Assembly (NCBI GenBank): GCA_024137785.1
Contig: JAHRHZ010000263.1
Coordinates: 43,732,721 to 43,796,720, forward strand
Reading direction: 5' to 3'
DNA length: 64,000 bases
DNA from: Ginglymostoma cirratum
Lineage: Eukaryota
Both the position numbers and the translations under genes were made by a program. The notes below the pieces were generated by a model. The model ran no database searches. It saw only the letters and a program-made list of their open reading frames with translations, and was not told where the DNA came from. Of the stretch, positions 3,615-59,369 are shown piece by piece (the stretch's first letter is position 1; each line of letters opens with the position of its first letter).

Positions 3615-4260
3615 TGTGCACTAAGATCAGAAGACACCGGAGCAAAAGCAGCCTATTGACTCTGCTCTGTCATTCAATGAGAGTGTGGCTGATCTGAAAA
3701 CCCTCAATTTCACTTTCCTGCCTTTTTCTGACAATCCCGGATTCTCTTACCGATTAAAAACCTCAGCCTCCCATATACTAAATGACCCTGTCAATTCCCC
3801 CAACAATCTTGTATGTTTCAACAGGGTTGCATTTCATTCTTCTATATTACTATGAGTACATGCCTAATCTACTCAACCTCTCCTCATATGATTGCTTCTA
3901 TACCTGACGTTAGCCTAGTGAACCTTCTCTGGATTGTCTCCAATGCCAGTATATCTTTCCTTAATTTATGAGTCGACAGTATACCAGCTGTGGTTTTGTA
4001 TAGCTTTAGCAAGACCTTCCATGTTTTTATATTCCATTCCCTTCAAACTCAAGGTCAACATTCCACATGCCTTCCTTTATTAACTGCTGAACTTGAGGAT
4101 TCTAGCTTTGTGCGATTCATGATGGGGACTCCCAAATTCCACTGTCCAATGGCTTTCTGCAGCTTTTCTCCTTCCAAATAATATTCAGTTTCTCTATTCT
4201 TCCTGCCAACGTGCATAATCATATTTACCCACATTATATTACCCACTCACATAGCTTGTT
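3615..4260 (-). mobile_element. Old CR1 3' fragment
   Basis: Minus-strand MHVGRKNRETEYYLEGEKLQ..NLGV and CR1-type 3' UTR. Confidence 0.75.
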
Positions 4261-6004: not shown

Positions 6005-6570
6005 AAATATAGTTCTTATCTTGCTGGACTAGTAATCCAAAGGTTAGCCAAATGAACCAGAAACACGAGTTCAAATCCAACCATAGCATCTGGGAAATTT
6101 AAAGTTAATCAATTATGGTGAACATAAAACCACTAGTTTGCCAGGAGATAATGACCAAGCAGTATTATCGTTAGACTACGAATCTAGAAACTCAGCTGAC
6201 CCTCTGAGGATCTGGGTTCAAATCTCACCATGGCAGATGGTGGAAGTTGTATCCAAATAAAAAAGGGATTTGAAATTAAGAGTCTAATCATGAAATCATG
6301 AAATCATGAAATCATGAATCAAACTGTTGTCAATTGTCAGAAAAAGCCATCCAGTTCAGTAATGTCCTTCAGTTGGCTGTCCTTTTCTAGTCTGGCCTAT
6401 TCGTAACTCCACAGCCACAGCAACAGCAATGTGGTTGACTCTGAGCTGTCCTCTGTGCACTTAGGGGTGGGCAGTAAGTGCTGGCCTACCTAGTGATACC
6501 CACATCCTGTGAATGAATAACCAAAAAAAAAAGCCATCTGGTTCACTAATGTACTTCAGGGATGTGAAAG
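6005..6570 (+). mobile_element. tRNA-head SINE with a second copy (about 6160-6530) nested in it; tail shared with the CR1-like LINE at 30112
   Basis: Two heads (GGACTAGTAATCC...GTTCAAATCC; CTGGGTTCAAATCTCACCATGGCAGATGG). Tail GGGCAGTAAGTGCTGGCC...CCCACATCCTGTGAATGAATAA-polyA. Internal (AATCATGA)x4 at 6286-6320. Confidence 0.75.
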
Positions 6571-6577
6571 TTATATA

Positions 6578-6786
6578 CAGTTGGTGCTGCAAAACATGTG
6601 TTGCTTCAACGCAAATTGGCTTTGACGTGTTTGAAGCATTTAGACCAATATTTGTAGAATGCAAACTTTCCTGACTGATATTGGCTATAACGTGATTCCG
6701 GCCCCATTCATTTAAGTGGCGTGGCTATTGCACAATTTTCCTACAAACGTGAGAATGGAACTATCACATTACATCAGAACCAACTG
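6578..6786. mobile_element. Tc1/mariner-pogo type MITE
   Basis: Terminal inverted repeats TA-CAGTTGGT(G)CTG ... CAGAACCAACTG, about 210 bp, non-coding. Confidence 0.55.
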
Positions 6787-6899
6787 GACATTGTGCAGAA
6801 TAACAGCACAGAAATAAGCCATTAAATCCAACAGAACTAGTTTTCATACTAATGCCTGTAAATCATACTGCTCTCTGTAAATGATAATTTATTTAATGT

Positions 6900-7265
6900 G
6901 GGATCATAAAATCATAAGAAAGCGATATAGAATTAGGCCTCTCAGCCCCTCAAGCCATCCTCACCATTCTACAAAATCAGGGCTATCTGCCCCACACCAA
7001 CTCCTCATAGCCATTAACTCCGATATTTCCAAAAATCTCTCCCCTCTAAATACATTCAGTGATCTAGCCTCCACAGCACTCCGTGGTACAGAATTCCAGA
7101 CACTCCCTACCCTCTAGGAGAAGAAATTCCTTTGGTGGCTCCTCATTCCGTAAATATTTTGAGATCCTGCCACCAGAGAAAACGTCTGAACATACAGTAT
7201 TCTGTCAGAATCTTGTTTGTTTCAATAAGATCACTGCTAATTCTTCTAAACTGTCACGAATAAAG
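6900..7265 (-). mobile_element. CR1 3' fragment
   Basis: Reverse complement of the CR1 3' end (CCTCCACAGCACTCCGTGGTACAGAATTCCA...AAGAAATTCCT). Confidence 0.7.
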
Positions 7266-7267
7266 GC

Positions 7268-7868
7268 CGAGATAACAAGGTGTGGGGCTGGATGAACACA
7301 GCAGGCCAAGCAGCATCGTAGGAGCAGGAAAACTTGACGTTTCGGGCCTAGACCCTTCATCAGAAAATTTTCTGAGNNNNNNNNNNNNNNNNNNNNNNNN
7401 NNNNNNNNNNNNNNNNNNNNNNNNNNNNNNNNNNNNNNNNNNNNNNNNNNNNNNNNNNNNNNNNNNNNNNNNNNNNNNNNNNNNNNNNNNNNNNNNNNNN
7501 NNNNNNNNNNNNNNNNNNNNNNNNNNNNNNNNNNNNNNNNNNNNNNNNNNNNNNNNNNNNNNNNNNNNNNNNNNNNNNNNNNNNNNNNNNNNNNNNNNNN
7601 NNNNNNNNNNNNNNNNNNNNNNNNNNNNNNNNNNNNNNNNNNNNNNNNNNNNNNNNNNNNNNNNNNNNNNNNNNNNNNNNNNNNNNNNNNNNNNNNNNNN
7701 NNNNNNNNNNNNNNNNNNNNNNNNNNNNNNNNNNNNNNNNNNNNNNNNNNNNNNNNNNNNNNNNNNNNNNNNNNNNCTGCTCCTATGATGCTGCTTGACC
7801 TGCTGTGTTCATCCAGCCCCGTGCTTGTTATCTCGGATTCTCCAGCATCTGCAGTACCTTTTATCCCC
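7268..7868. mobile_element. Penelope-like pLTR fragments in inverted orientation flanking a 400-N gap
   Basis: Left GAGATAACAAGG...GACGTTTCGGGCCTAGACCCTTCATCAGAAA; right CTGCTCCTATGATGCTGC...TTGTTATCTCGGATTCTCCAGCATCTGCAG. Gap 7377-7776. Confidence 0.8.
7334..7366 (-). ncRNA. Minimal hammerhead ribozyme motif (PLE type)
   Basis: Minus strand reads CUGAUGA-AGGGUCUAGGCCC-GAAAC-GUC: both conserved core boxes, stem II hairpin and GUC triplet. Confidence 0.65.
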
Positions 7869-9454
7869 AACAGGGATACTGCTGCTCACATTCAAATAGT
7901 TGTGAATACTTCGCATCCATCTGGTGCGGGTTGCAAACTGGTTTAAAATGCCTTCTCCAGACAATGTCAGCTTGGTATTATTGTCCTCAAGTTTCAAATG
8001 AGATTTTACGCTCAAGGTTGGAACGCAAAAGTTTTGCAAGAACTCCAGTTGGCTGAAGCTTTGTTCTATTCTTCACCTGTATGATTTATTACAGCCTATC
8101 TCATTAAAAAGAGATAAACAGCAACTGTGGGTGGAAATAATGATGTTTTAGATCCTTAGGCACTTCTTCAGTCTTTGTTGGGTGTCAATATCCACAGTTA
8201 TGAGATTAGACTGATATTTCAAAGGGACTACCTTTTGGATGAAATTGTTGCCATTCCATTTCTCAGTGGAATAAACTCAAATGTATCTTGAGACATACAG
8301 AAACATTAAAGTTTTTGGAATTCCCTGGGTCTCCTTCTGCTCTCCCCACTATGGAGTCATCTTGTACTGAAGACCGCGTCCACCTGTGGTGTATGCCATA
8401 ATTTATGTGACAGTGACCAGCCGGTCATAAACTGGACTCGCTCAGTTCTTCACACAGATGCACAACCAGCTTTCTAGACAACATTCAGGAAAACCAGGCT
8501 CATGGCTCATCTGAATTGGCAGTGTCACACCACTTGATGTAATGCAGATATCATGTGCAATGCCTCCATTTTTTCTGGAGGTGAAGCTGTAGCAAATCCA
8601 CACTTGCAGTCATAGAGTCATGCAGTATAGAAACATACCCTTTGGTCCAACTAGTCCACACTGACCATGTTCCCAAACTGAACTAGTCCCTGTTGCCTGC
8701 ATTTGGCCCACATCACAAGTTGAGCAGAGAACACTACTGAATTATAGGCTTTCAGATGAACCATCAAGCCAAAGCCAAACGTTTTAATGCTATGCAGGTG
8801 AAAGAGTTCAAAAATCACTCTGCATTAAAACTAACCATTTCTAACACGGATTGCTGTTACAGATTGCCAGCTAATGCAGAATTTTGCTGATGTTGCTGAC
8901 CCAACTATGGGGCAGAATTGAAATATTAGAGGTTTTTGAGTGCCTTAAGTGGTGTACTGGAGACTAAGTTGAAGATCAACGGAGCAATAGTGGCATCAAA
9001 TCTCGGAAAGTCATACAATGCAGATATGTTCAAGGTGCTACAGGGTTGGTGTGATTGGGGCATATCTAGAAAATTCCATGTGTTAACCAGAGAATGTGGA
9101 CTCATTTTCACCTGAGCAAGAAGTCACAACTTGAGTAGCTTCCCAGTATTTGGGCCACATTAAAAATTGCCAATGATGGAAAATGGGGATGGGTAAACCG
9201 TGGCTGGGATCTGCCTGCCATACTCAAGCCCAATTGCATTCATTTAACATAGATGCAAACTGTGAAATCATGTCTCATGCCAAAATCTTGTCAAGGGTTG
9301 GTACAATTCGCATCAACAAACAAATTAGAACTGGGGTAGACCACTCTGTCTCTCTAGCCAGCACCACTCAGGATGTTCAACAAAGAGTCACATCAACAGA
9401 GCTGAAAATAGGCAAGTGTCCCTGGATCGAGCACATTAAAGAAAAGGAGGCAAA

Positions 9455-28900: not shown

Positions 28901-30111
28901 ATTTTCGTAGCCTCCATTAATGAAAGGTGACAGAATGGTGATAATCATGAGATTTGAAAATGCCTCTCATGACTCACACAAAACTAAACAGAAAATGAGA
29001 AATTAAGAATAGTAACCACATCCCCTCCCCCGCTCCCACAAAACCAGTTTTGTAGCATATTTAGTGACAGGCAGAGAAAGGTTTTAGAGGGGACGTGCCC
29101 ATCGTTACCTGGGAGAGCAACAGAAGAATAAAAGGATTATGTAAGTCACATGATCTGTGAGCCAAATGATGCAAACTCTGTTGTATTAATTGGTAAGGTC
29201 ATTCAATTTACACAGAACGGCTGATGCAGGTAATGCAATCTGGAATATTGGAAACATTCCAGATTCCAGAATCTGGAAAACAAAGGATATACCAGCATGG
29301 TGCTTACATTATTGTATGCTACTGAAAGTACACGCTTTGAAAGATACTGTAGTCAATGTGAGTATGAAATGCTCCAAGAGTTCAAGAACGTGAACTCGCT
29401 ACTAAAGAAGTCAAAGAAGATTTAAAAAAGTGATTACGATAAGACATTTCAATTGGTACAAAACAGGAAAAGGTTCAGAGGGTTATGGGCCAAAACGCAG
29501 ACAAGTGAGACTAGTTTGTATTGAGAAACTTGGTCAGCATAGGCTAATTGGACCGAAGGTCTGTTTCTGATCTGTATGACTCTAGCCTGTATGTGACTCC
29601 AGTCCCACCTTGCCCTCTGATGTGGTTGAACAAGCCAGTGAGTTGCATTACCAGCTTCTCAGGGGAGATGTTGTTTCTCAGGGGAAAACAAACTGTAAAC
29701 AAAAATGCAGTCCAGCCACATTGGGTCATCTAGCTTGGAAGCATCCTTTTCTTGATAAAGTCAGATTTCAAGGCCCGCATTTTTTCTCTATCCTCAATGT
29801 GTTATTAGTGGGTGGGAAAAGAAAAAGCCCGAAAAATTTCCTGAAAGCCTACTCATCTCAAAACATGAACCCTATCACTCGACACAGAAGCTGCCAGACC
29901 TGCTGAGCATTTCCAGTATTTTGTCCAGTATTTCTATCCCCCACAACGCCAACGGACTATGGTTCAGTGAGTGAAGGCAACCCTCTAATATTTTACCTTG
30001 AAGCCACTGGTCACGCACAATGTTGCCAGGATAGTCAACCAAGGCCTGACTTCATTCAATATCCACGCATCAAGCTCGCTTTCACTTGCTGAAAGGTATG
30101 CGCATTGTGGA

Positions 30112-33697: not shown

Positions 33698-35439
33698 CAG
33701 AAATTATTAGGCTAAGTGGTAAGTTGCTTTTACATCATAATTCCATTCTAATGCACGGCCTTCCATGAAGCAGCACAAACATAATGGCATTTTTTTTTCT
33801 AATAAAGAAATCCCTGGTGCCTTTAAGTGAAAATCTGGTTCTGTTCATACGAAAGCTGAAAATAGGCATCACATAAGATATAATCTTGTCTTCCATCTGA
33901 AAGTAGCCAGACTTCAATCACTGGAAATTACTTAACAAGATTATGCTGGACAAGTTACTAGTTTGATTGGCATACACCTGTCAATTTCTCAATTAATTTA
34001 ATTATTTTTGAACATGTTGAAAATTTTACAAGTAAAAAAATCCAAGAAAATAAACATAAGTCTGGAAGCCCTGCTTAAAACTTGCCTTGCTGATTTTGCA
34101 GGGGCTGGTTCCAGGAAAAACTTTCTTGGCCAGCATTAAAATGTCACAGAAATTTGTTTTTTGCTTGACAAAATTTCCATACAAAATTTCCCCAATCTTT
34201 GCTGTTGGATCAGCTGATTTTGTAGTCTAAGGGGTTAAGTCTGACCACGTGGCAGGGAGTGATGCAATGTCACATGATCTTGCTCTCTCTGTTGCAGTCT
34301 GGTGGCAAGATGAAGCCATAATAACATATCTCCATAAATTAAGTTGATCATTTCCTGACCTCAGCTGACTCTAATTATTTTATAGCAGCAGTCATGAAAC
34401 CAATGATAGATCATACCCAGACTACATGGATGACATTAGCAGAAGCACTACCCCTCAGGCTGGCCCTGGAATTGATTGAAAGATGGTTAAGATTTTAGAA
34501 TGACAGATTTGCCCTTCGTATTTTCCCTTTCTGTAGGAAACCATCCCTACAGCAAAGCCTAGGCTGGGAAACAGACATTGAATAACCACAATTTTAAGCC
34601 AGGTCACTCCAGCAGCATCACTTGTGGTTTCACAAAGGTCAGAGATGGGAATCCCCCACGTACCTTGTTTAAAAAAGGAGAAATGTAGGTTCCGAAAGCA
34701 GGCTGCTACCAAGACAAACACCAATCAGCAGAACAAAGGAAACAAACTGAATCAAGAAGCTGTGATTAGATGATAAGAAGCTTGCCTATGTGATGTAGAT
34801 TGAAAAATGTATTTCTTTGCTGGGCAGTGAAAAATTATCTGCCCAAAAAGTAGATAATCCATTCAATACATTCTGTCTCAGATACTGAGAGGCCTACATG
34901 CAAGGATGGTGCCAGGCGATGTTCAATCAGATAGGCACCTACCTTCCACTTATTTTTTTAAAAGAAACTGATTTTAAAATACATCTGTTAACATGCATGC
35001 ATGCACTTTTAAAGGAAGTGTTATATTAAAATATAGCAGACATTTCCTAAAATTCCACTCACATTCCATTTGCAGCTCCTGAACAGTACAGTGATCTGCC
35101 TGTGAGTGGGATTTATCTATCGATAGATCACAATAATTCAAAAAAGATGGCTGTCGCCCTTGTCCTCCATCTCCCTGGCAAAGCTCACCACTATGAATTT
35201 TGATTGAGTACCAATAACACTATTTTGATTGCATTCCAAAACAATACAGATTTAGAATTCTGGGCAAAATAATCTACTTTGCGCAGATTGCAGCACCAGA
35301 ACACGGGAGCTTTAAAGTTACTTGCAAAGCCTTGGGCAAAGTCTTATTCAACAGCTTGCCATACCATGGATATTTCCTTGTGTGTTTCATTTATTGATTT
35401 CCCAATTTATCTGAAGCGTCACTAACAGGCCTGAGTTCA

Positions 35440-36010
35440 GATTTCAGTTCATCTGCTGCTGAAATTGTGATCCAAGCCTTTGGTACCTCTGGACCTCATT
35501 ATTCCAATAGACTTCCAGCCAGCCTCCCATTTACCACCCTACAGGAACTTTAAGCTCATCTAAAATCTGTATCCAACTCACGCCAAGTCTCATTCATGTA
35601 TCATCCCTGTGCTCACTGACCTATACTGACTCCCGGTGAAGCAAAATGATGACATTCATAATCTCATCCTCATTTTCAAAATTGTCCTAGGACTTTGTAA
35701 GAATGGCAGAGTCACAACTTTCAGGTATCTGTACTGCTCCAATTCAGATTCCTTCAGTAGGTTCGTTTTCAACCACTTCAGTAGCAGCCATGGCCCAAGC
35801 TCTGGAATTCCTTCCCTAAATTTCTGCTCTGCCCACCTCCTTTTTCCTTCTTCAATAATGCTCTTTAAAACCTACCTTTGACCATAATTTCTGTCACCAG
35901 CATGAATACTGGTGGCATATGGTTTGGTGTCCAATTTAGTTTGATAATGCTTCTGGAAACACCTTGGGAAGCTTGCTACATGAAAGCCACTAGAGAAGTA
36001 GAAGTTGTCA
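35440..36010 (+). mobile_element. L2 LINE 3' fragment
   Basis: CATCCCTGTGCTCACTGACCTA.ACTG.CTCCCGGT...CTCTGGAATTCC.TCCCTAAA...CTCTTTAAAACCTACCT, the L2 C-terminal HITPVL..LHWLPV region and tail. Confidence 0.75.
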
Positions 36011-46449: not shown

Positions 46450-47300
<851 letters not shown>

Positions 47301-48959: not shown

Positions 48960-51900
48960 TCTATTCGCTGCAGTGACCCACAACAACTACTTACATTAGG
49001 ACAGCACCTCTTTAATGTAAGAAGGCATCCCAATACCACATATGACTGAGCCACACAAGAAATGTTGGGCGGATGGCCAAAAAATTTCTCAAAAACTTAA
49101 GTCTAAAGAAATATTTTAAGACAATAAAAAGGTGTTGGGTGTGAATTCCAGAGCACAGGGGCTAGACCACTTCAAGTACGGCCACCAAGTCTGAAGCAAT
49201 TAAAATCAGGGTGCTCGAGAGATCAAAATTAAATGAATGCAATTACCTCAGAGGGTTATGGCATGGAGGAGATTACAGAGGTAGAGTGGGATGAGACCAT
49301 AGAGGAAACAGAAAACATGATGAAAATTTTAATATAAGATAACAAGGTGTAGAGCTGGATCAACACAGCAGGCCAAGCAGCATCAGAGGAGCAGGAAAGC
49401 TGACGTTTCGTATCTGGACCATTTTTCAGATTTCTGAAGAAGGGTCCAGACCTGAAACATCAGCTTTCCTGCTCNNNNNNNNNNNNNNNNNNNNNNNNNN
49501 NNNNNNNNNNNNNNNNNNNNNNNNNNNNNNNNNNNNNNNNNNNNNNNNNNNNNNNNNNNNNNNNNNNNNNNNNNNNNNNNNNNNNNNNNNNNNNNNNNNN
49601 NNNNNNNNNNNNNNNNNNNNNNNNNNNNNNNNNNNNNNNNNNNNNNNNNNNNNNNNNNNNNNNNNNNNNNNNNNNNNNNNNNNNNNNNNNNNNNNNNNNN
49701 NNNNNNNNNNNNNNNNNNNNNNNNNNNNNNNNNNNNNNNNNNNNNNNNNNNNNNNNNNNNNNNNNNNNNNNNNNNNNNNNNNNNNNNNNNNNNNNNNNNN
49801 NNNNNNNNNNNNNNNNNNNNNNNNNNNNNNNNNNNNNNNNNNNNNNNNNNNNNNNNNNNNNNNNNNNNNNNNNNAGCATCAGAGGAGCAGGAAAGCTGAC
49901 GTTTCGGGCCTAGACCTTCAGGTCAGCTTTCCTGCTCCTCTGATGCTGCTTGGCCTGCTGTGTTGATCCAGCTCTACACCTTGTTATCTCAGATTCTCCA
50001 GCATTGGCAGTTCCTACTATCTATGAAAATTTTAATGTCAAGATTGAGCTTGACTGGGAACCAACTTAATTCTGAACACATTTAGATGATAGGTAAATGG
50101 AATTCTGTGAAGGTTAAGTCTTGTTGTGAGGAGCTGATTTTTAAATGACCTCAAATTTGCAGAGGATAGAATGTGGGAGACCTATTAGAAGTATTTAAGA
50201 TAGTCAAGTCTAGAGATAACAAAGGCAAGAATGGATGTTTCAGTAGGAGATGAGCTTAGACAAGGGCAAAGTTGAGGATGTTAGACAGCGAGGAAATGTG
50301 CAATAGTAGAGCTGCCATGGATATACGAATGGAAGGTCACCTTGGGGTCAAATATTACAAGCAGACAGGTTTAGTCTCAGACTGTTGTCAGACAGAAGGA
50401 TTGAGTCGATTGCCTTCAATCTTCATAAGAATGGATGAGAATATGCATTTGTGATGGGACTCACTGACTGTCTATGTTAATGCATTGGAATAGTTTTTAA
50501 AACATTTTAATCAAAGTTAGACCTCTGTGATATGGTCATTTTCTTTTTTTTATTTTATTATTCATTTACATGCAATTCTTGGATAAACAATCAATGTAAA
50601 TAATTTCTGTTTGGATAATAAAGTGGAATTTTAAAAATTCCTAGTATTTAATGGGAGGAAATCTCACATCCAATACAGGATGTCAGATAAGCAGTCTGAT
50701 AATTTAGCAATAATGAAGGAAGTAAGAGAGATGGCAGTGAACTACATTTAGAACTAATATTGTGCCTTTGGATACTGTCATGGAGGGTAATCTAGAAGAG
50801 ATGATTTAGATGAGAAATAACAGAGATCCATGATTGAATCTTGAGGGCTACCAAAATAACTGTGTGGAAGTGGGAGAGGAGGAACTGCAAGTAATAGGCT
50901 ACAATTAGATTAATAAGAATGAAAATTAGATGAGAGTAGTCCCATCCAGCTGGATGACAGGGGAGAAGAGTTGGTAAAGGATGGTATGGTCACGTGTGTC
51001 AAACATTGCAGGTAGGTTGAGAAGGATGAAAAGGGATAGTTTACCCTTGTCACAATCTCACAGGATATCATTTGTGACTTTGATTCAACTTTGACTCAAT
51101 CCCTCTCTCTGGAAACAGTCTGAGACCAAATCTGTCTGCTTGTAACCATTTCAGTTCTGTGACAAAGCGATAATCTGACTGCAGGGATTCAAGCATGGAA
51201 TGCTGAGAAAATTGGGAACAGGTTTGAGAGGTGACAGCACATTCAAGGACTTTAGACAGGGAAGGGAGATTGGAGATGGGATGGCAGTTTGTAAATTCAG
51301 CGGGGTTAAAGGTTTTTTTATGAGGAGAAAGCTGGTGGTGGCAGATTTCAAGGAAGGGCAATAGCTGAAAGAAGAGAACTGTTCACCTTATTGGCCACCA
51401 TGATAAAGGGATACAGAGTGGGAGAGTGTAACGGAGCAGCTGCAGTAATGTTCTGTTGAACAGACAGCAGAAGATTCAACAGCTAAAATTGTAGATGCAA
51501 CTGAAATGAATTGGGGGATAGTCTTTTCCATTGGTGGATACGAATGGAAGTAGGATTGGGACATGGAAGGGTTGTCAGTAGTGGGTGTTACAGGAAGTGA
51601 TTGGAACTGCCCTTATATTTGATTGATATAATAAAACAAAGAAGACCATATGAGATAGCAGTGTCAAGGGAGTTGATTGTGAATATGGACTGGAAAGTTT
51701 ACATGGGGGAGAGATTTAGGAAGGATAGAAGGTAGTGAAAGCCGTGGAAAAAGAGCTTGATTCATAAGCTGGAGCTTGAAATTATCAAAAATGAGAAGTT
51801 GTTCCATACAGAGACTGAAGGAGGAAGAAAATGAAGATCTTTCAGTAATAACATTTTTTGTATACTTGAGAAGGGAGTACAAAAGTATGATTTTAAAAGA

Positions 51901-54244: not shown

Positions 54245-55140
54245 CAGAATCACAGAATTGTTACTGCCCTGAAGGAGGTCATTCAGTTCATCATATCTGC
54301 AACAGCTCTCTGATTGAGAAATTTACTCAGAGTGTGATTCTCCAGCCTTCTGTCCACAATACTCCACATTTTTCCTTTTCAGATAATTGTCAAATTATTT
54401 TTCGAATATTTCATTTGAAGTCGCAGGCACTGCATTCCAGACCTCGCTGCATGATAAGGTTTATTGGTGTACCACTTTGCTTCTTCTTGCCAAAAACTTT
54501 AAAACTGTGTCCCCTGATTCACAGGTGAAAATAGTTTCTCCTTATCTACTCTGTCCAGACCCATCATAATTTTGAATACTTAAATCAGATCTCCTCTTAG
54601 CCTTCTATTCTCCAAGGAAAACAGCCCTAATTTTTTCGATCTGTCTTCCTAGCTGAAGTTCTGCCCCGTGGATCGCTTCACGTGAATCCGTTCTGCACTC
54701 TCTTCAATGCCCTCAAATCCATCCTAAAGGGTGGTGCTCAGAACTGGATGCATTACTCCAACTGGGGCTGACCAAGTGTCCTATATAGAGTTCAACATAA
54801 TTTCATTGCTCTTATGCCCTGTGCTCCTATTAATAAAATTGAATAATTAAGATTTGAAACTTTAAGTCTGTTTCTCTCTCCACAGGTGCTGCTAGACCTG
54901 CTGATTTTCTCCAGCACTTTCTGTTTTTAGAACATAAGAACTAGGAGCAGGAGTAGGCCATCTGGCCCCTTGAGCCTGCCCCACCATTTAATAAGATCAT
55001 TGCTGATCTTTTTGAGACACAGCTCCACTTACCCGCCCGCTCACCATAACTCTTTTGTCCCGGTATAATGAATGCTTTATCAGCTGCACTCTCAATCTGT
55101 ATTACACACATATCCCTCTACTCCTGGGACCCTTTGAGTG
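54245..55140 (-). mobile_element. Cluster of CR1 3' fragments and an old PLE tail
   Basis: TACTCTGTCCAGACCC.TCATAATTTTGAATAC...CAGAACTGGATGCATTACTCCA; AGAACATAAGAACTAGGAGCAGGAGTAGGCCA at 54929. Confidence 0.75.
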
Positions 55141-55479
55141 TTAAAATGTACCTGAGATAGGAGCAGAACTCCTGTGATAGGGGAATTAACACAGCTCCCA
55201 CTGTTGAATTGCTGAGGTGCAGTTGTCAGTATGGTGGGCAGGCTCACTAATGACTTTTAGCTAGTTCGTTGGGGACCATGGTATTCTGTAAAATTCAGCT
55301 CATTGTGTTTGGGGCTAGTGAATGGACAACCACAGCTAATGAGAGAAGAAGACCACATTACCTTTTAATGGCTCTTATGATACAGTACAGTGTGTCTACA
55401 TCTGGCCAGAAGGTCTGGGTTCAGATCTCACCTGCCATTGAAAATGGGTCATAACATGTCTGAAAAGGTTGATTAAAAA

Positions 55480-56060
55480 TAACTTTAAAGATAGCTTGGA
55501 CAAGAAATAGACAAGAAATTGAACAAAAACAAGAAAAAATACTGATATGGAAATGTGAACGGTTTTGGTCTCCTTATCTAATGAAAGATATACTACTATT
55601 GCTGGCTGTCCAGAGAAGATTCACTAAGTGGGTCATGATACGGATGGATTTTCTGATGACGAGAGGTTGAGTAAGTTGGCCTGTATTCATTAAATGTAAA
55701 AGAATTTGAGGTGATCTCATGAAATATATATGATTGTTTGGGGACTTGGCAGTGTAGGTGAGCAATGGTCGCTTCCCCTTGTGGGAAAGTTTAGAACCAG
55801 AGGGCATAATCTCAGAATGAGGGGTTGTCCATTAAAGGAAGAGATGATGAGGAATTTCTTCCCAAAGAGTAATGAATTTGTGGAATTCTTCACTGCAGAC
55901 AGCTGTCAAGGCTGGATCATTAAGATAGCAAAGGCTGAAATAGGTCAGTAAGGAAATCAAGAGTTATGGGGAAAAGGCAGGATAGCGGACTCGTCGGTTT
56001 TTAGGTCAGCCATGATCTCATTAAAAGATCTACTTATACTCCTATGTTCTATGGTCTCTT
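55480..56060 (+). mobile_element. CR1 3' fragment
   Basis: GTCCAGAGAAGATTCACTA...GAGGTGATCTCATGAAA...RTRGHNLRMRG. Confidence 0.8.
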
Positions 56061-56369
56061 ATAGAGATTAGAATTTATTATGTATGGGATAATCCCACAT
56101 TGTCAATTACATTCTCAAACTTGCCTTACAGTTCATAAAAATAGAAAGTGTCACTTTCATTACAATTACCGATTAAATGAGAGTCAAAAGCAAACATAAA
56201 TATTTCTAAAGAGCAAAACGATTAAATAAAAATAAAAGAAATTTATGAGATTAAGTTATGATATGCAATTCTATTATACAGTACAGCATGTTGTATTAAA
56301 ATTTAGGTTTTATAAAGCTTAATTTGGTGGAAAGAGCTGAAGGGTTGTTAGTGATGGTAGGTGCCTATT

Positions 56370-56860
56370 TTCTATTCTGCGATTGGCGAATATTAATATT
56401 TTGTCTCATTAGTCCCTGCTTTCTGTACTTTGATTGGAGAATATTGATTGGAGAATACCAATCTTGTATCTGATTGGTCCTTACCTCTTTACAGTGATTG
56501 GTGATTATTGACAACTTACTTCTGATTGGTTCCTGTTTCCAGTACTGCAATTGGGGAATATTGATACCTTGCCTGTGACTGGTCTTTGCCTTCTATACCA
56601 TGATTGGAGATTATTGATTTCTTATCTCTGATTGGTTCACATTCTCAGTTGAAGAATATTGATAACTTGTCATTAGTTCCAACCGTCTGTATTATGATTA
56701 GAGAATTTTGATATCTTGTCTCTGATTGATTCCTAGCCTCTATACAGTGAGTGGAGAACACTGGTATGTGTCTCCTGTGCTGTTTTCTGTACCATGATTG
56801 GTGAATATTGATTTCTCATCTTGATTGGTCCCTTCCCACCATACTGCAATTGGTAACACT
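56370..56860 (+). repeat. Degenerate 52-53 bp minisatellite with two inverted CCAAT boxes per unit
   Basis: Unit approx CTGTACxxTGATTGGAGAATATTGATATCTTGTCTCTGATTGGTCCCTGCCT. First box at 56382, 56433/56447, 56497, 56550, 56603, 56797, 56849; second at 56473, 56525, 56631, 56824. About 9 units. Confidence 0.8.
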
Positions 56861-57149
56861 TCTGGAGTTAGTTTTTACCTGATTGGCCAAATGCTGTTGG
56901 ATCATCGGCAGCGATTAGTTAAATCGGCCAGAAGGCTGTTAAATTACGTTTTTCATTGGTCAGCCTGGAGATTGATGACTTTGTTCGAAGGCAGTTCCTA
57001 TTGGCCTGGTTAGAAACTGAGGAGAAATACACCTGGTGATGGTTATCACTAGAATTAAATCTACCTTTGAGATGGGCACGGTCCGCAATCGGAGTCCGTG
57101 ACAGTCACCACTCTCAAATACCCACGAGGATTGATTGAACGTCAAGGTC

Positions 57150-57470
57150 ATTTTGATTGGCGGAGACTAGAACCTCTGCGATCTGATTGATCAGTAATAG
57201 GATTCCTGCAAGTGATTGGAGCAACAAAAAATCCCATTCGCTCTGTGATAGGCGGAGGCCGAGCTACGCTACGCCGTAATTCCCCAAGGTTACTGAGATC
57301 TGATTGGTAGAGACGGAGCAGACCCTCGTTGTGATTGGCGGAGACCGAGCAGCTCCCAGCGCTCTAATTGGTGGAAATGGAGCATCCCCGCCCTCTGATT
57401 GGTGGAGCTACAGAGGCGCCGCGTGGTGATTGGTAAACACGCTGTGGCCCCGCGTTCTGATTGGTGGGTT
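57150..57470 (+). promoter_or_regulatory. RP2 proximal promoter: ladder of inverted CCAAT (NF-Y) boxes in a CpG-rich region
   Basis: ATTGG at 57303, 57334, 57367, 57398, 57429, 57460 (spacing 31,33,31,31,31), plus 57156 and 57215. CCCCGCCC GC box near 57386. Confidence 0.8.
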
Positions 57471-57546
57471 TGGTCGGCAGGGCGAGGGGAAGCGGTTGTC
57501 AGGGGCCGGGACCGAGGGACAGCGAGTGTCGGAGGTACAGGGCAAG

Positions 57547-57666
57547 ATGGGTTGCCTGTTTTCCCGGAAATCTAAGGAGAAAGACCAAGAGAAGAAGAAG
57601 AAAAAGAAGAAGGAACCTGATGCCGAGGAGGAGCCCAAGCAATACAGCTGGGACCAGCGGGAGAAG
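57547..57666 (+). CDS. RP2: Retinitis pigmentosa 2 protein (XRP2, ARL3 GAP), coding exon 1 (partial gene)
   Basis: MGCLFSRKSKEKDQEKKKKKKKEPDAEEEPKQYSWDQREK matches the RP2 N-terminus (MGCxFS acylation motif, PKQYSWDQREK). Kozak GCAAGATGG, phase-0 donor AAG|GTGAGT at 57666/57667. Confidence 0.96.
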
Positions 57667-57678
57667 GTGAGTCTCTGT

Positions 57679-57707
57679 GGGGAGCGAGGGTTAGGGTTAG
57701 GGTTAGG
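57679..57707 (+). repeat. Short telomere-like (TTAGGG) tract / G-run cluster just inside RP2 intron 1
   Basis: GGGGAGCGAGGGTTAGGGTTAGGGTTAGG, 12 nt after the start of the intron. Confidence 0.8.
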
Positions 57708-58737
57708 ACCGAGTCCAATGGATGCAGCCACACCGAACCTGACTGGTCAACCGAGGCTCCAAACCCATCTCAACATACTCCGATCCCGGCCCCCTCCCTC
57801 AATAGCCCCTTGTTTCTCCCTCTACTCCGACCCCCAACAACAACCCTCACCCGAATCCTGCCCCACATCCGCCGCGATTAACTCTTCATCTCCTGTTTGC
57901 TGCCCCTACTCCTTTTACCCTGCCCCCACCCGCTTTTCCTTAGCCCCGCCTCTCTTTCCCCTTCCCCTGTCGATGTTGAGCAATGAAGCCACTGTCAACA
58001 AACTGCAGGAGGAATACATACTCAATTTAGACTAAAGCAGGAGACTAATTAAATGTTATGCTTGTATACGTGTAACCACGTAGATATGAGGTATAGTAGA
58101 ACAACCTAATAATGTGTATTTAGGCAATGTCTTGAATATTTTTGGAAAAAAATACTTCAGTTGATATTTGCTTCATAATGATCCGTTCTAGCTCACAGTC
58201 TTGTCCGTTTACTGAGTAATTCTAACGCCAGTTTTTCATGATTTAAAAAACGACTTAGGATTCCACTTGTGAAGATGGTGTCATGGCTTTTTTTGTAAAG
58301 ATTTGTGGCTGAAGTGGTTGTTTTCTGTGGCAATGGGTCATATTTGTAGACTTCCATAATGTAGAGCAAGATTTCTAGTACAAGCGGTCTGAGTTGCATT
58401 TCCCTCCTGCCATGTAACCTTTTTAAACTTTTTTTCCCAATTACATTGTACTCTGGCTGACAAAAGGGAAACTGTTATGGCATTAACAAGATCTGAACTT
58501 GCATTGGGTTGAGTTTTTTTTTTGTCCTGCCCTCCTGCAATATTCTGTGCTGAAGGTGGTTTGAGGTCTCTTTGCTATATCTCTCCTACAAAATTATGTG
58601 GAAAAGCAACGTGCAATTTTGATAATTGTACTCTTGATCATTATAACTTGACTGGGGACACTTGCAGTTACAGAGGTCTTTTATTCTGTGATGTGTGGTG
58701 AATTGTAGTTTGTGCAGTATAGCAATACATCTCAATC

Positions 58738-58830
58738 TGAGATAAAAGGTACTGCAGATGCTGGAGAATCCGAGATAACAAGCATGGAGCTGGATGAACA
58801 CAGCAGGTCAAGCAGCATCATAGGAGCAGT
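58738..58830 (-). mobile_element. PLE pLTR terminal fragment
   Basis: Near-identical to 44509-44600. Confidence 0.8.
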
Positions 58831-59369
58831 GTAGATCAGAATGTGTGCCCACTCCTTGAGACTTTCCATTAGGGCAGATGACCAAAAGCTTTGTCAAAGA
58901 GACAGAGGTTGGCCTGCTGAGTATTTTAAGCAACTTTTGTTTCTGTTTCAGATTTCCACCATCAACAATTTTGCTTGAGTTGGCTATCTAGTTTCAGTGA
59001 AGTAGAATCTGGCATCTTTACTGTAAGCATGCTGTCAGAAGTCAAGAATCTACTCCCCATTTTAAGGGCAGTGCACTCATCTGGGCAATAGTTTGATGTT
59101 TGATTAGAAACTATTGATACTGATGTTCATAATGATAATTTTGAGGTTTCCTTCACTTCAGGTGTGGTAACTCAAACAGTTTTCTTTCCACATAGTTTTC
59201 TAACGTCCTCTCCTGTAAACAATGATTACTGTGAGCTGGCCTCTCATCAGCTCATCGTGTTTAACTGTGCACACTATTTTTTGAGTCTGGGTGATTGAGT
59301 GACAACCGTTTGCCAGTGGAGATCTTCACAGAAATCGGAACCCTATTCTCATCTGAAATCTTACTATTT

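Follow-up and report, generated by a model that had tools for sequence, protein, structure and literature searches.

An unusually large CCAAT array with a visible duplication history upstream of RP2 in Ginglymostoma cirratum

The 23 co-oriented CCAAT boxes upstream of the RP2 gene of Ginglymostoma cirratum are two tandem arrays plus a linker and not independent sites. The proximal ladder of six boxes arose by tandem duplication of a unit of about 31 bp, whereas the distal block arose by duplication of a two-box unit of about 53 bp; both arrays are old, and their homogenization has ended. The best explanation, which we favor with moderate confidence, is a functional proximal ladder accompanied by a largely passive distal array. 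All positions refer to the window, that is, the whole stretch of 64,000 nucleotides that was analyzed (contig JAHRHZ010000263.1, positions 43,732,721 to 43,796,720 of the forward strand), and the coordinates of the individual features are provided in Table 1.

Between positions 56370 and 57470, we counted 23 exact copies of ATTGG, all in the same orientation, and a single CCAAT. The sequence TGATTGG accounted for 17 of the 23 boxes, and the recount thus bore out the number and form of the boxes given in the preliminary description of this DNA. At the rate observed in the remainder of the window, 1.26 copies are expected per 1101 bp. Dinucleotide shuffles contained on average 2.3 boxes with a maximum of 9, and the observed number was reached in none of 2000 shuffles. 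When all 5-mers were compared over all 1101-bp stretches of the window, this cluster ranked as the most extreme (log10 P of -20.6). The earlier statement that about one box would be expected by chance is numerically correct at the window rate, but it is the wrong null for the meaning of the cluster: three positions in two repeat units gave rise to 21 of the 23 boxes. In total, 13 boxes belong to the distal minisatellite, 8 to the proximal array with its intervals of 29 to 33 bp, and 2 are single; seven further cores carry one mismatch (56578, 56697, 56725, 56750, 57134, 57186, and 57248). The last box is located 87 bp upstream of the RP2 ATG. Assembly stutter is unlikely, since the units are too diverged and the 6 kb around the array are free of N, the closest assembly gap being located at 49475-49874. 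Neither BLAST nor a profile search detected a second copy of the 53-bp or the 31-bp unit above chance in the 64-kb window. Smaller same-strand box clusters, with irregular spacing and mixed flanks, were observed at 51211-51600 (7 boxes), 29189-29720 (5 boxes), and 35211-35931 (5 boxes).

Table 1. Positions of the features upstream of and around the first exon of RP2
Feature	Position	Strand	Remarks
NHE6/7-type sodium/hydrogen exchanger, first coding exon	46842..47159	-	E 1.7e-27 to NHE6
Distal minisatellite	56365..56880	+	Ten units of ~53 bp (45-64); GC 37%; CpG o/e 0.17
Perfect 14-bp tandem duplication, unit 2	56430..56457	+	Adds extra box 56447
CpG-island-like zone	56880..57970	.	CpG o/e 0.5-0.9 (200-bp windows) vs 0.28 window-wide; GC 45-60%
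Middle stretch, without clear repeat	56881..57140	+	Well-flanked boxes 56882, 56955, 57000; CpG o/e 0.76
Four older proximal units	57146..57290	+	Cores 57156 exact, 57186 one mismatch, 57215 exact, 57248 one mismatch
Proximal ladder	57291..57480	+	Exact boxes 57303, 57334, 57367, 57398, 57429, 57460; GC 58%; CpG o/e 0.83
GC box GGGCGG	57388..57393	-	5 bp from box 57398; sole exact one in 56000-57700
RP2 (XRP2) coding exon 1	57547..57666	+	40 codons; strong Kozak context; GT donor at 57667

The identity of the downstream gene as RP2, proposed beforehand, was confirmed by two matches. Residues 1 to 34 of human XRP2 were matched by the exon at 57547 (E of 2.6e-4), and XRP2 of Mustelus asterias was the sole match to exon 1 among 6 candidates (large protein set; 80% identity, E of 1.6e-7). 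On the other side of the array, at a distance of about 9 kb, lies the NHE6/7-type exon, which is divergent from RP2 and has its own CpG island; we take it to be SLC9A7 by synteny, as this gene is the neighbor of human RP2. The CpG-rich zone spans the middle stretch, the ladder, exon 1, and the start of intron 1, and the distal array is located outside this zone.

The six boxes of the proximal ladder are spaced by 31, 33, 31, 31, and 31 bp, in agreement with the 31 to 33 bp initially reported. Tandem Repeats Finder (TRF) returned a period of 31 with 71% matches, and the self-identity at lag 31 with the boxes masked was 47%, compared to 26% expected. The pairwise identity of the spacers was 50% versus 27% for shuffled spacers, a value reached by none of 5000 shuffles, and it was 49% versus 28% once the 11 bp around the box had been removed. 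The spacers, which had been considered strongly diverged, are thus still clearly homologous, and this homology supports the view that the promoter was built by tandem amplification of a CCAAT unit. The most similar pair of proximal units is 71% alike, and the median is 52%. We take the GGGCGG sequence within the ladder to be an Sp/KLF-type GC box. In most ladder units (57291-57460) a CG-rich word is found 5 nt after the pentamer, as read on the CCAAT strand, and its columns are among the best-kept spacer positions; judged by its letters, this word may represent a site of the Sp/KLF or E2F type that is paired with the box. E2F motifs have been described at +6/+7 (PMC3730095). The ladder also contains an upstream, out-of-frame ATG at 57377 that opens a 19-codon ORF (57377-57436) and stops before the RP2 start. 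This ATG would be of consequence only if transcription began upstream of it, and its presence would favor a transcription start site (TSS) downstream of most of the ladder.

The four older proximal units follow each other at intervals of 30, 29, and 33 bp, with another 55 bp to the first ladder box. Their spacers are related to those of the six-box ladder, since only 1 and 2 of 1500 permutations reached the observed score. The CpG-rich zone begins in the middle stretch, whose box at 56882 is probably box B of the last distal unit.

The distal minisatellite consists of ten units with two box slots each. The units were registered on a non-box anchor, except for two degenerate units that were placed by box position, and the cut points were set by hand; the resulting anchor spacings are 51, 64, 53, 53, 45, 49, 53, 47, and 52. 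The box A slot is exact in 7 of 10 units (56382, 56433, 56497, 56550, 56603, 56797, and 56849), and the box B slot, 28 bp downstream of A, in 4 of 9 units (56473, 56525, 56631, and 56824). With permissive settings, TRF identified a period of 53 with 8.6 copies and 55% matches, consistent with the 52- to 53-bp repeat with two boxes per unit that had been noticed; the default settings did not detect the distal repeat. The best pair of units is 88% alike (median, 66%), and the perfect 14-bp duplication in unit 2 is the only young duplication in the region. The box intervals of 24 to 28 bp satisfy only the steric minimum for NF-Y. Two ideas on the history of the 53-bp unit found no support, namely, that it is an ancient dimer, as its halves are not homologous (1422 and 1381 of 1500), and that it retains deaminated-CpG columns, for which 4 pairs were found compared to 2.45 after permutation (4220 of 20000), with 2 to 5 for control dinucleotide families. 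A founding unit that was itself poor in CpG could be enough to account for the low CpG ratio of the distal array. The hexamer ATCAAT, presumably a CUT/ONECUT-type core, occurs nine times on the minus strand in 56443-57191, five times at the conserved non-box anchor of the 53-bp unit. This anchor is 86% conserved, compared to 92% for box A, and may correspond to a site for a second factor or simply to a third degenerate box.

Boxes and spacers differ in their conservation. In the ladder, 30 of 30 core positions but only 100 of 144 spacer positions (69%) carry the majority base; the uncorrected Fisher P value of 6e-5, which is the same without CpG columns, leaves aside that the region was picked for its many exact boxes. 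We thus simulated neutral decay at the observed overall divergence, with the best window free to fall anywhere in the unit. An invariant 5-mer was obtained in 22 to 49 of 4000 simulations with equal rates and in 176 to 385 of 4000 with gamma rate variation, and a test over 7 columns gave 14 to 202 of 4000. The scan-corrected P value for the invariance of the ladder cores is 0.004 to 0.10, and the evidence for selection on these cores is moderate. An extended test with ten proximal units (0 to 37 of 4000) was set aside because the units had been chosen and registered on their boxes. The ladder intervals of 31 to 33 bp are almost free of indels, compared to 45 to 64 bp in the distal array. In the latter, boxes and spacers are 88% and 74% identical to the consensus, respectively (Fisher P of 0.0014, and 0.01 to 0.03 without CpG-type columns), and a simulation at fixed positions gave P values of 0.006 to 0.03. 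After scan correction, however, distal box retention is not significant (P of 0.18 to 0.71), and box B is no better kept than the spacer (P of 0.18 to 0.22). The proposal that boxes were kept while spacers decayed is thus supported for the proximal ladder, but weakly or not at all for the distal array. Given the excess conservation at fixed positions, to regard the latter only as debris may be too strong.

The six ladder boxes are in phase at 10.4 to 10.5 bp (R of 0.92 to 0.95), which is one coincidence and not five, since the period of a minisatellite is inherited. Several of the best-flanked boxes seemed to be in phase with the ladder at 10.5 bp, but this long-range phasing was dismissed after cluster jitter (6144 to 8594 of 20000 with a free period and 1389 to 2705 of 20000 with a period fixed at 10.5). 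Of the helically phased ladder initially envisaged, the six boxes remain, and phasing beyond them is not significant (P of 0.07 to 0.43).

Concerning the kinship of the two arrays, the observed likeness between the A-to-B half of the distal unit and the proximal spacers was reached in 69 and 14 of 1500 column permutations, and that with the older proximal spacers in 5 and 35 of 1500; these are four comparisons out of ten made. When four of the eight A-to-B spacers were compared with GC-matched segments of the window, the likeness was not significant (P of 0.09 to 0.12), and the B-to-A half showed no resemblance to the proximal spacers. The idea of a minisatellite grading into the ladder depends on the null chosen (P of 0.003 to 0.05 for the column permutations) and is at best weakly supported, and a common ancestor of the two arrays is no more than suggested. 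A more ambitious reading is that the locus is a fossil record of the birth of a three-turn NF-Y ladder: one CCAAT unit would have been amplified over 1.1 kb, selection in the CpG island would have frozen the cores and the 31-bp period, and the copies outside would have turned into the 53-bp two-box unit and decayed. We consider this reading unlikely. If it were general, tandem duplication would often be the source of the 31-bp CCAAT spacing that is common at vertebrate promoters, and its trace would still be visible in sharks, whose genomes evolve slowly, whereas mammals would have lost the spacer homology.

Both orientations of CCAAT are recognized by NF-Y, and the bound site usually lies at -40 to -100 relative to the TSS (PMC3730095). 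For co-oriented CCAAT pairs in human ChIP-seq data, the modal spacing is 31 bp, followed by further maxima every 10 to 11 bp, and a distance below 24 bp is sterically excluded (PMC4982600); the ladder spacing fits this modal dimer spacing. The following observations bear on the assignment of the array to the NF-Y promoters. (i) Multi-CCAAT promoters have at least two intact co-oriented pentamers; the RP2 array has 23 versus 1 in the opposite orientation, including six consecutive exact cores. (ii) The last box falls 40 to 100 bp from the TSS only if the 5' untranslated region is short. (iii) Flanks were scored over five positions against a consensus and not a matrix, resulting in 3.5 for the ladder, 2.3 for distal box A, 4.75 for distal box B, 4.3 for the middle stretch, and 2.0 for 146 background boxes; the ladder flanks thus appear good but not ideal, and the best are those of distal box B and the middle stretch. 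(iv) Of the partner motifs searched for, none matched near the gene. CHR variants were present only at 56735-57000 and nowhere in 57001-57700, and the TSS-near CHR element of G2/M CDE/CHR promoters was thus not found; ERSE and ERSE-II (CCAAT-N9-CCAC(G/A) and ATTGG-N-CCACG) had no match on either strand in 56000-57700. DECA (GA-NN-GAC 10 to 11 bp upstream of CCAAT) accompanied 0 of 23 boxes, and there was no match near the gene to full NFI, C/EBP, E-box, E2F, G4, or plus-strand TATA motifs. By sequence, the RP2 array has the makeup of a multi-CCAAT NF-Y promoter and is predicted to work as one.

In the explanation that we favor, RP2 would have a TATA-less CpG-island promoter with two old arrays, each of which amplified a CCAAT-bearing unit. 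Purifying selection has probably kept the CCAAT cores of the ladder and its three-turn period, while the spacers drifted. Several NF-Y trimers would then bind side by side on one helix face, beside the GC box. Since NF-Y maintains an upstream nucleosome-depleted region and guards TSS choice (PMC6624317), the ladder may keep nucleosomes sparse upstream of the start site and determine where RP2 transcription begins, which would be between about 57465 and 57546. The distal array, outside the CpG island (CpG o/e of 0.17 versus 0.83 for the ladder), may be mostly a decaying by-product with little or no contribution to expression, and the well-flanked middle boxes are possible accessory sites. Human RP2 is not in the lists of up- or downregulated genes contained in 8 of the 16 supplemental files of an NF-Y regulome study (PMC7793273), and these lists thus provide no support for a conserved NF-Y dependence. 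NF-Y at mammalian RP2 was likewise not found in the four supplemental files, out of four, of another study, which apparently do not include a full list of bound promoters (PMC6624317).

The same data can be read in other ways. The arrays might be a mutational by-product, in which germline-bound sites duplicate, only the one or two boxes nearest the TSS matter, and the other ladder boxes and the period are neutral. Where factors bind DNA in spermatogonia, short insertions frequently copy the binding motif and so give rise to homotypic clusters, an effect shown for insertions of 5 to 20 bp in a study whose main text does not name NF-Y (PMC8559717). The perfect 14-bp insertion in the array duplicates a box in this manner, neutral simulations with strong rate variation reached the observed box conservation in 4 to 10% of cases, and the distal array shows little sign of selection. 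We nevertheless consider this alternative fairly improbable, given that all six cores are invariant, even 150 bp from the last box, next to spacers that are 69% conserved, and that the ladder period is almost indel-free, unlike that of the distal array, and matches the spacing preferred by NF-Y (PMC4982600). Alternatively, the entire 1.1 kb could be one amplified unit that forms a single NF-Y array for nucleosome exclusion, with its copy number tuning RP2. The common orientation of all 23 boxes would be expected in this case, as would the resemblance of the A-to-B half to both sets of proximal spacers and the excess of distal boxes over spacers at fixed positions; the distal 53 bp correspond to five helical turns, box B has ideal flanks by the consensus used, and the TRIB3 33-bp VNTR (PMC7425993) and the ABO minisatellite (PMC7187371) are precedents. 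Such a single array is distinctly unlikely in view of the outcome of the second null for shared ancestry and the unlike B-to-A half, the fact that box B is intact in less than half of the units, the lack of long-range phase, and a distal array as CpG depleted as bulk DNA. Repeat instability falls with impurity. Near-identical units, as expected of an active VNTR, are absent, since even the most similar pairs reach only 88% (distal) and 71% (proximal) identity; ongoing copy-number change, and hence the tuning of expression by copy number that had been suggested, is therefore unlikely.

It would also be conceivable that, in the manner of human LTR12, an LTR or another dispersed element either inserted into the RP2 promoter or was recruited to serve as this promoter, and that the array is what is left of its U3-like part. 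The U3 region of LTR12 contains 5 to 17 tandem repeats of about 41 nt with CCAAT boxes (PMC11853044), more human NF-Y sites fall in LTRs than in any other class (PMC3730095), and a minus-strand TATA-like match (56314) and AATAAA (56079) follow the array in the order of an LTR. However, these two matches lie in a stretch of 28% GC, where they are common. No TG...CA ends with a 4- to 6-bp target-site duplication were found when the left end was placed in 56060-56380 and the right end in 57465-57546, although an old element could have lost them. Neither unit has a second copy in the 64 kb, and the ladder passes straight into the CpG island and exon 1. An origin from such an element is thus highly improbable.

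The RP2 array is an unusually large variant of a known architecture, of which all parts are known; its scale and its visible duplication history are unusual. By origin it is a minisatellite, that is, a series of head-to-tail homologous units of 10 to 100 bp. A comparison with known systems revealed the following. (i) It shares with the multi-CCAAT promoters of G2/M genes and mouse Sp2 the co-oriented boxes at 31 to 33 bp, the promoter-proximal location, and the adjacent GC box (PMC4982600; PMC3730095). The mouse Sp2 promoter has five CCAAT boxes in -150/+1 (bioRxiv 10.64898/2026.02.16.706105), which weakens the notion that such promoters usually have only 2 to 3. The RP2 array differs in having six boxes without a break in register, preceded by four older units, in spacers that show descent from one unit, and in the lack of CHR, ERSE, and DECA near the gene. 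(ii) Human ABO also has a CCAAT-bearing minisatellite upstream of a CpG-island promoter, and NF-Y is bound there; it is a polymorphic repeat of a 43-bp unit, present once or four times about 3.8 kb upstream, and its in vivo effect is disputed (PMC7187371), whereas the RP2 units are old, diverged, more numerous, and adjoin the gene. (iii) The U3 of LTR12/ERV9 likewise acquired many co-oriented CCAAT boxes via a tandem unit of 40 to 50 bp, but it is a dispersed retroviral sequence with about 5000 copies (PMC11853044), in contrast to the RP2 array, unique within 64 kb. (iv) The TRIB3 33-bp VNTR resembles the RP2 array in its tandem copies of one factor's site and its similar period, and these copies strengthen the TRIB3 promoter; it differs in being a C/EBP-ATF site in 1 to 5 near-identical polymorphic copies with a measured dose effect (PMC7425993), compared to proximal RP2 units of limited likeness. 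(v) The human RP2 gene has a GAAA repeat about 0.6 kb upstream, just outside the CpG island, but this primate-restricted tetranucleotide is unrelated in sequence to the shark arrays (PMC4117532). BORIS (PMC4973313) was also considered and is not a match. Among the full-text matches listed, neither a CCAAT array at RP2 nor a six-box 31-bp ladder with homologous spacers was described, which is weak evidence of novelty, as most subscription journals are outside the literature searched.

Whereas the origin of phased CCAAT pairs is rarely visible, the RP2 spacers still show it. The locus permits an internal comparison of box and spacer decay inside and outside a CpG island and lends itself to asking whether homotypic clusters of sites are maintained by selection or arise from mutation only. 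No new regulatory mechanism is revealed.

A number of minor observations concern the surrounding sequence. An Rfam search of 55000-59000 gave no matches at E values up to 1, and a Pfam search of 8 selected ORFs identified no family; transposon labels of the flanking DNA are based on resemblance. By such resemblance, 55500-56060 would be the 3' end of a CR1/L2-type LINE. This stretch stops about 300 bp short of the array, and its segment 55579-55755 matches 3785-3963 at 69%. At 7267-7865 and 49331-50035, two of the three N gaps are bordered by inverted copies of one dispersed repeat of about 100 bp, which occurs more than 10 times in the window. Within RP2 intron 1, 20 bp from its start, the telomere-type hexamer AGGGTT is present in 3.5 copies (57687-57707). 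The N terminus of shark RP2 is six residues longer than that of the human protein, and seven consecutive lysines follow the MGC acylation motif (57547-57666); this polybasic stretch could provide extra membrane binding.
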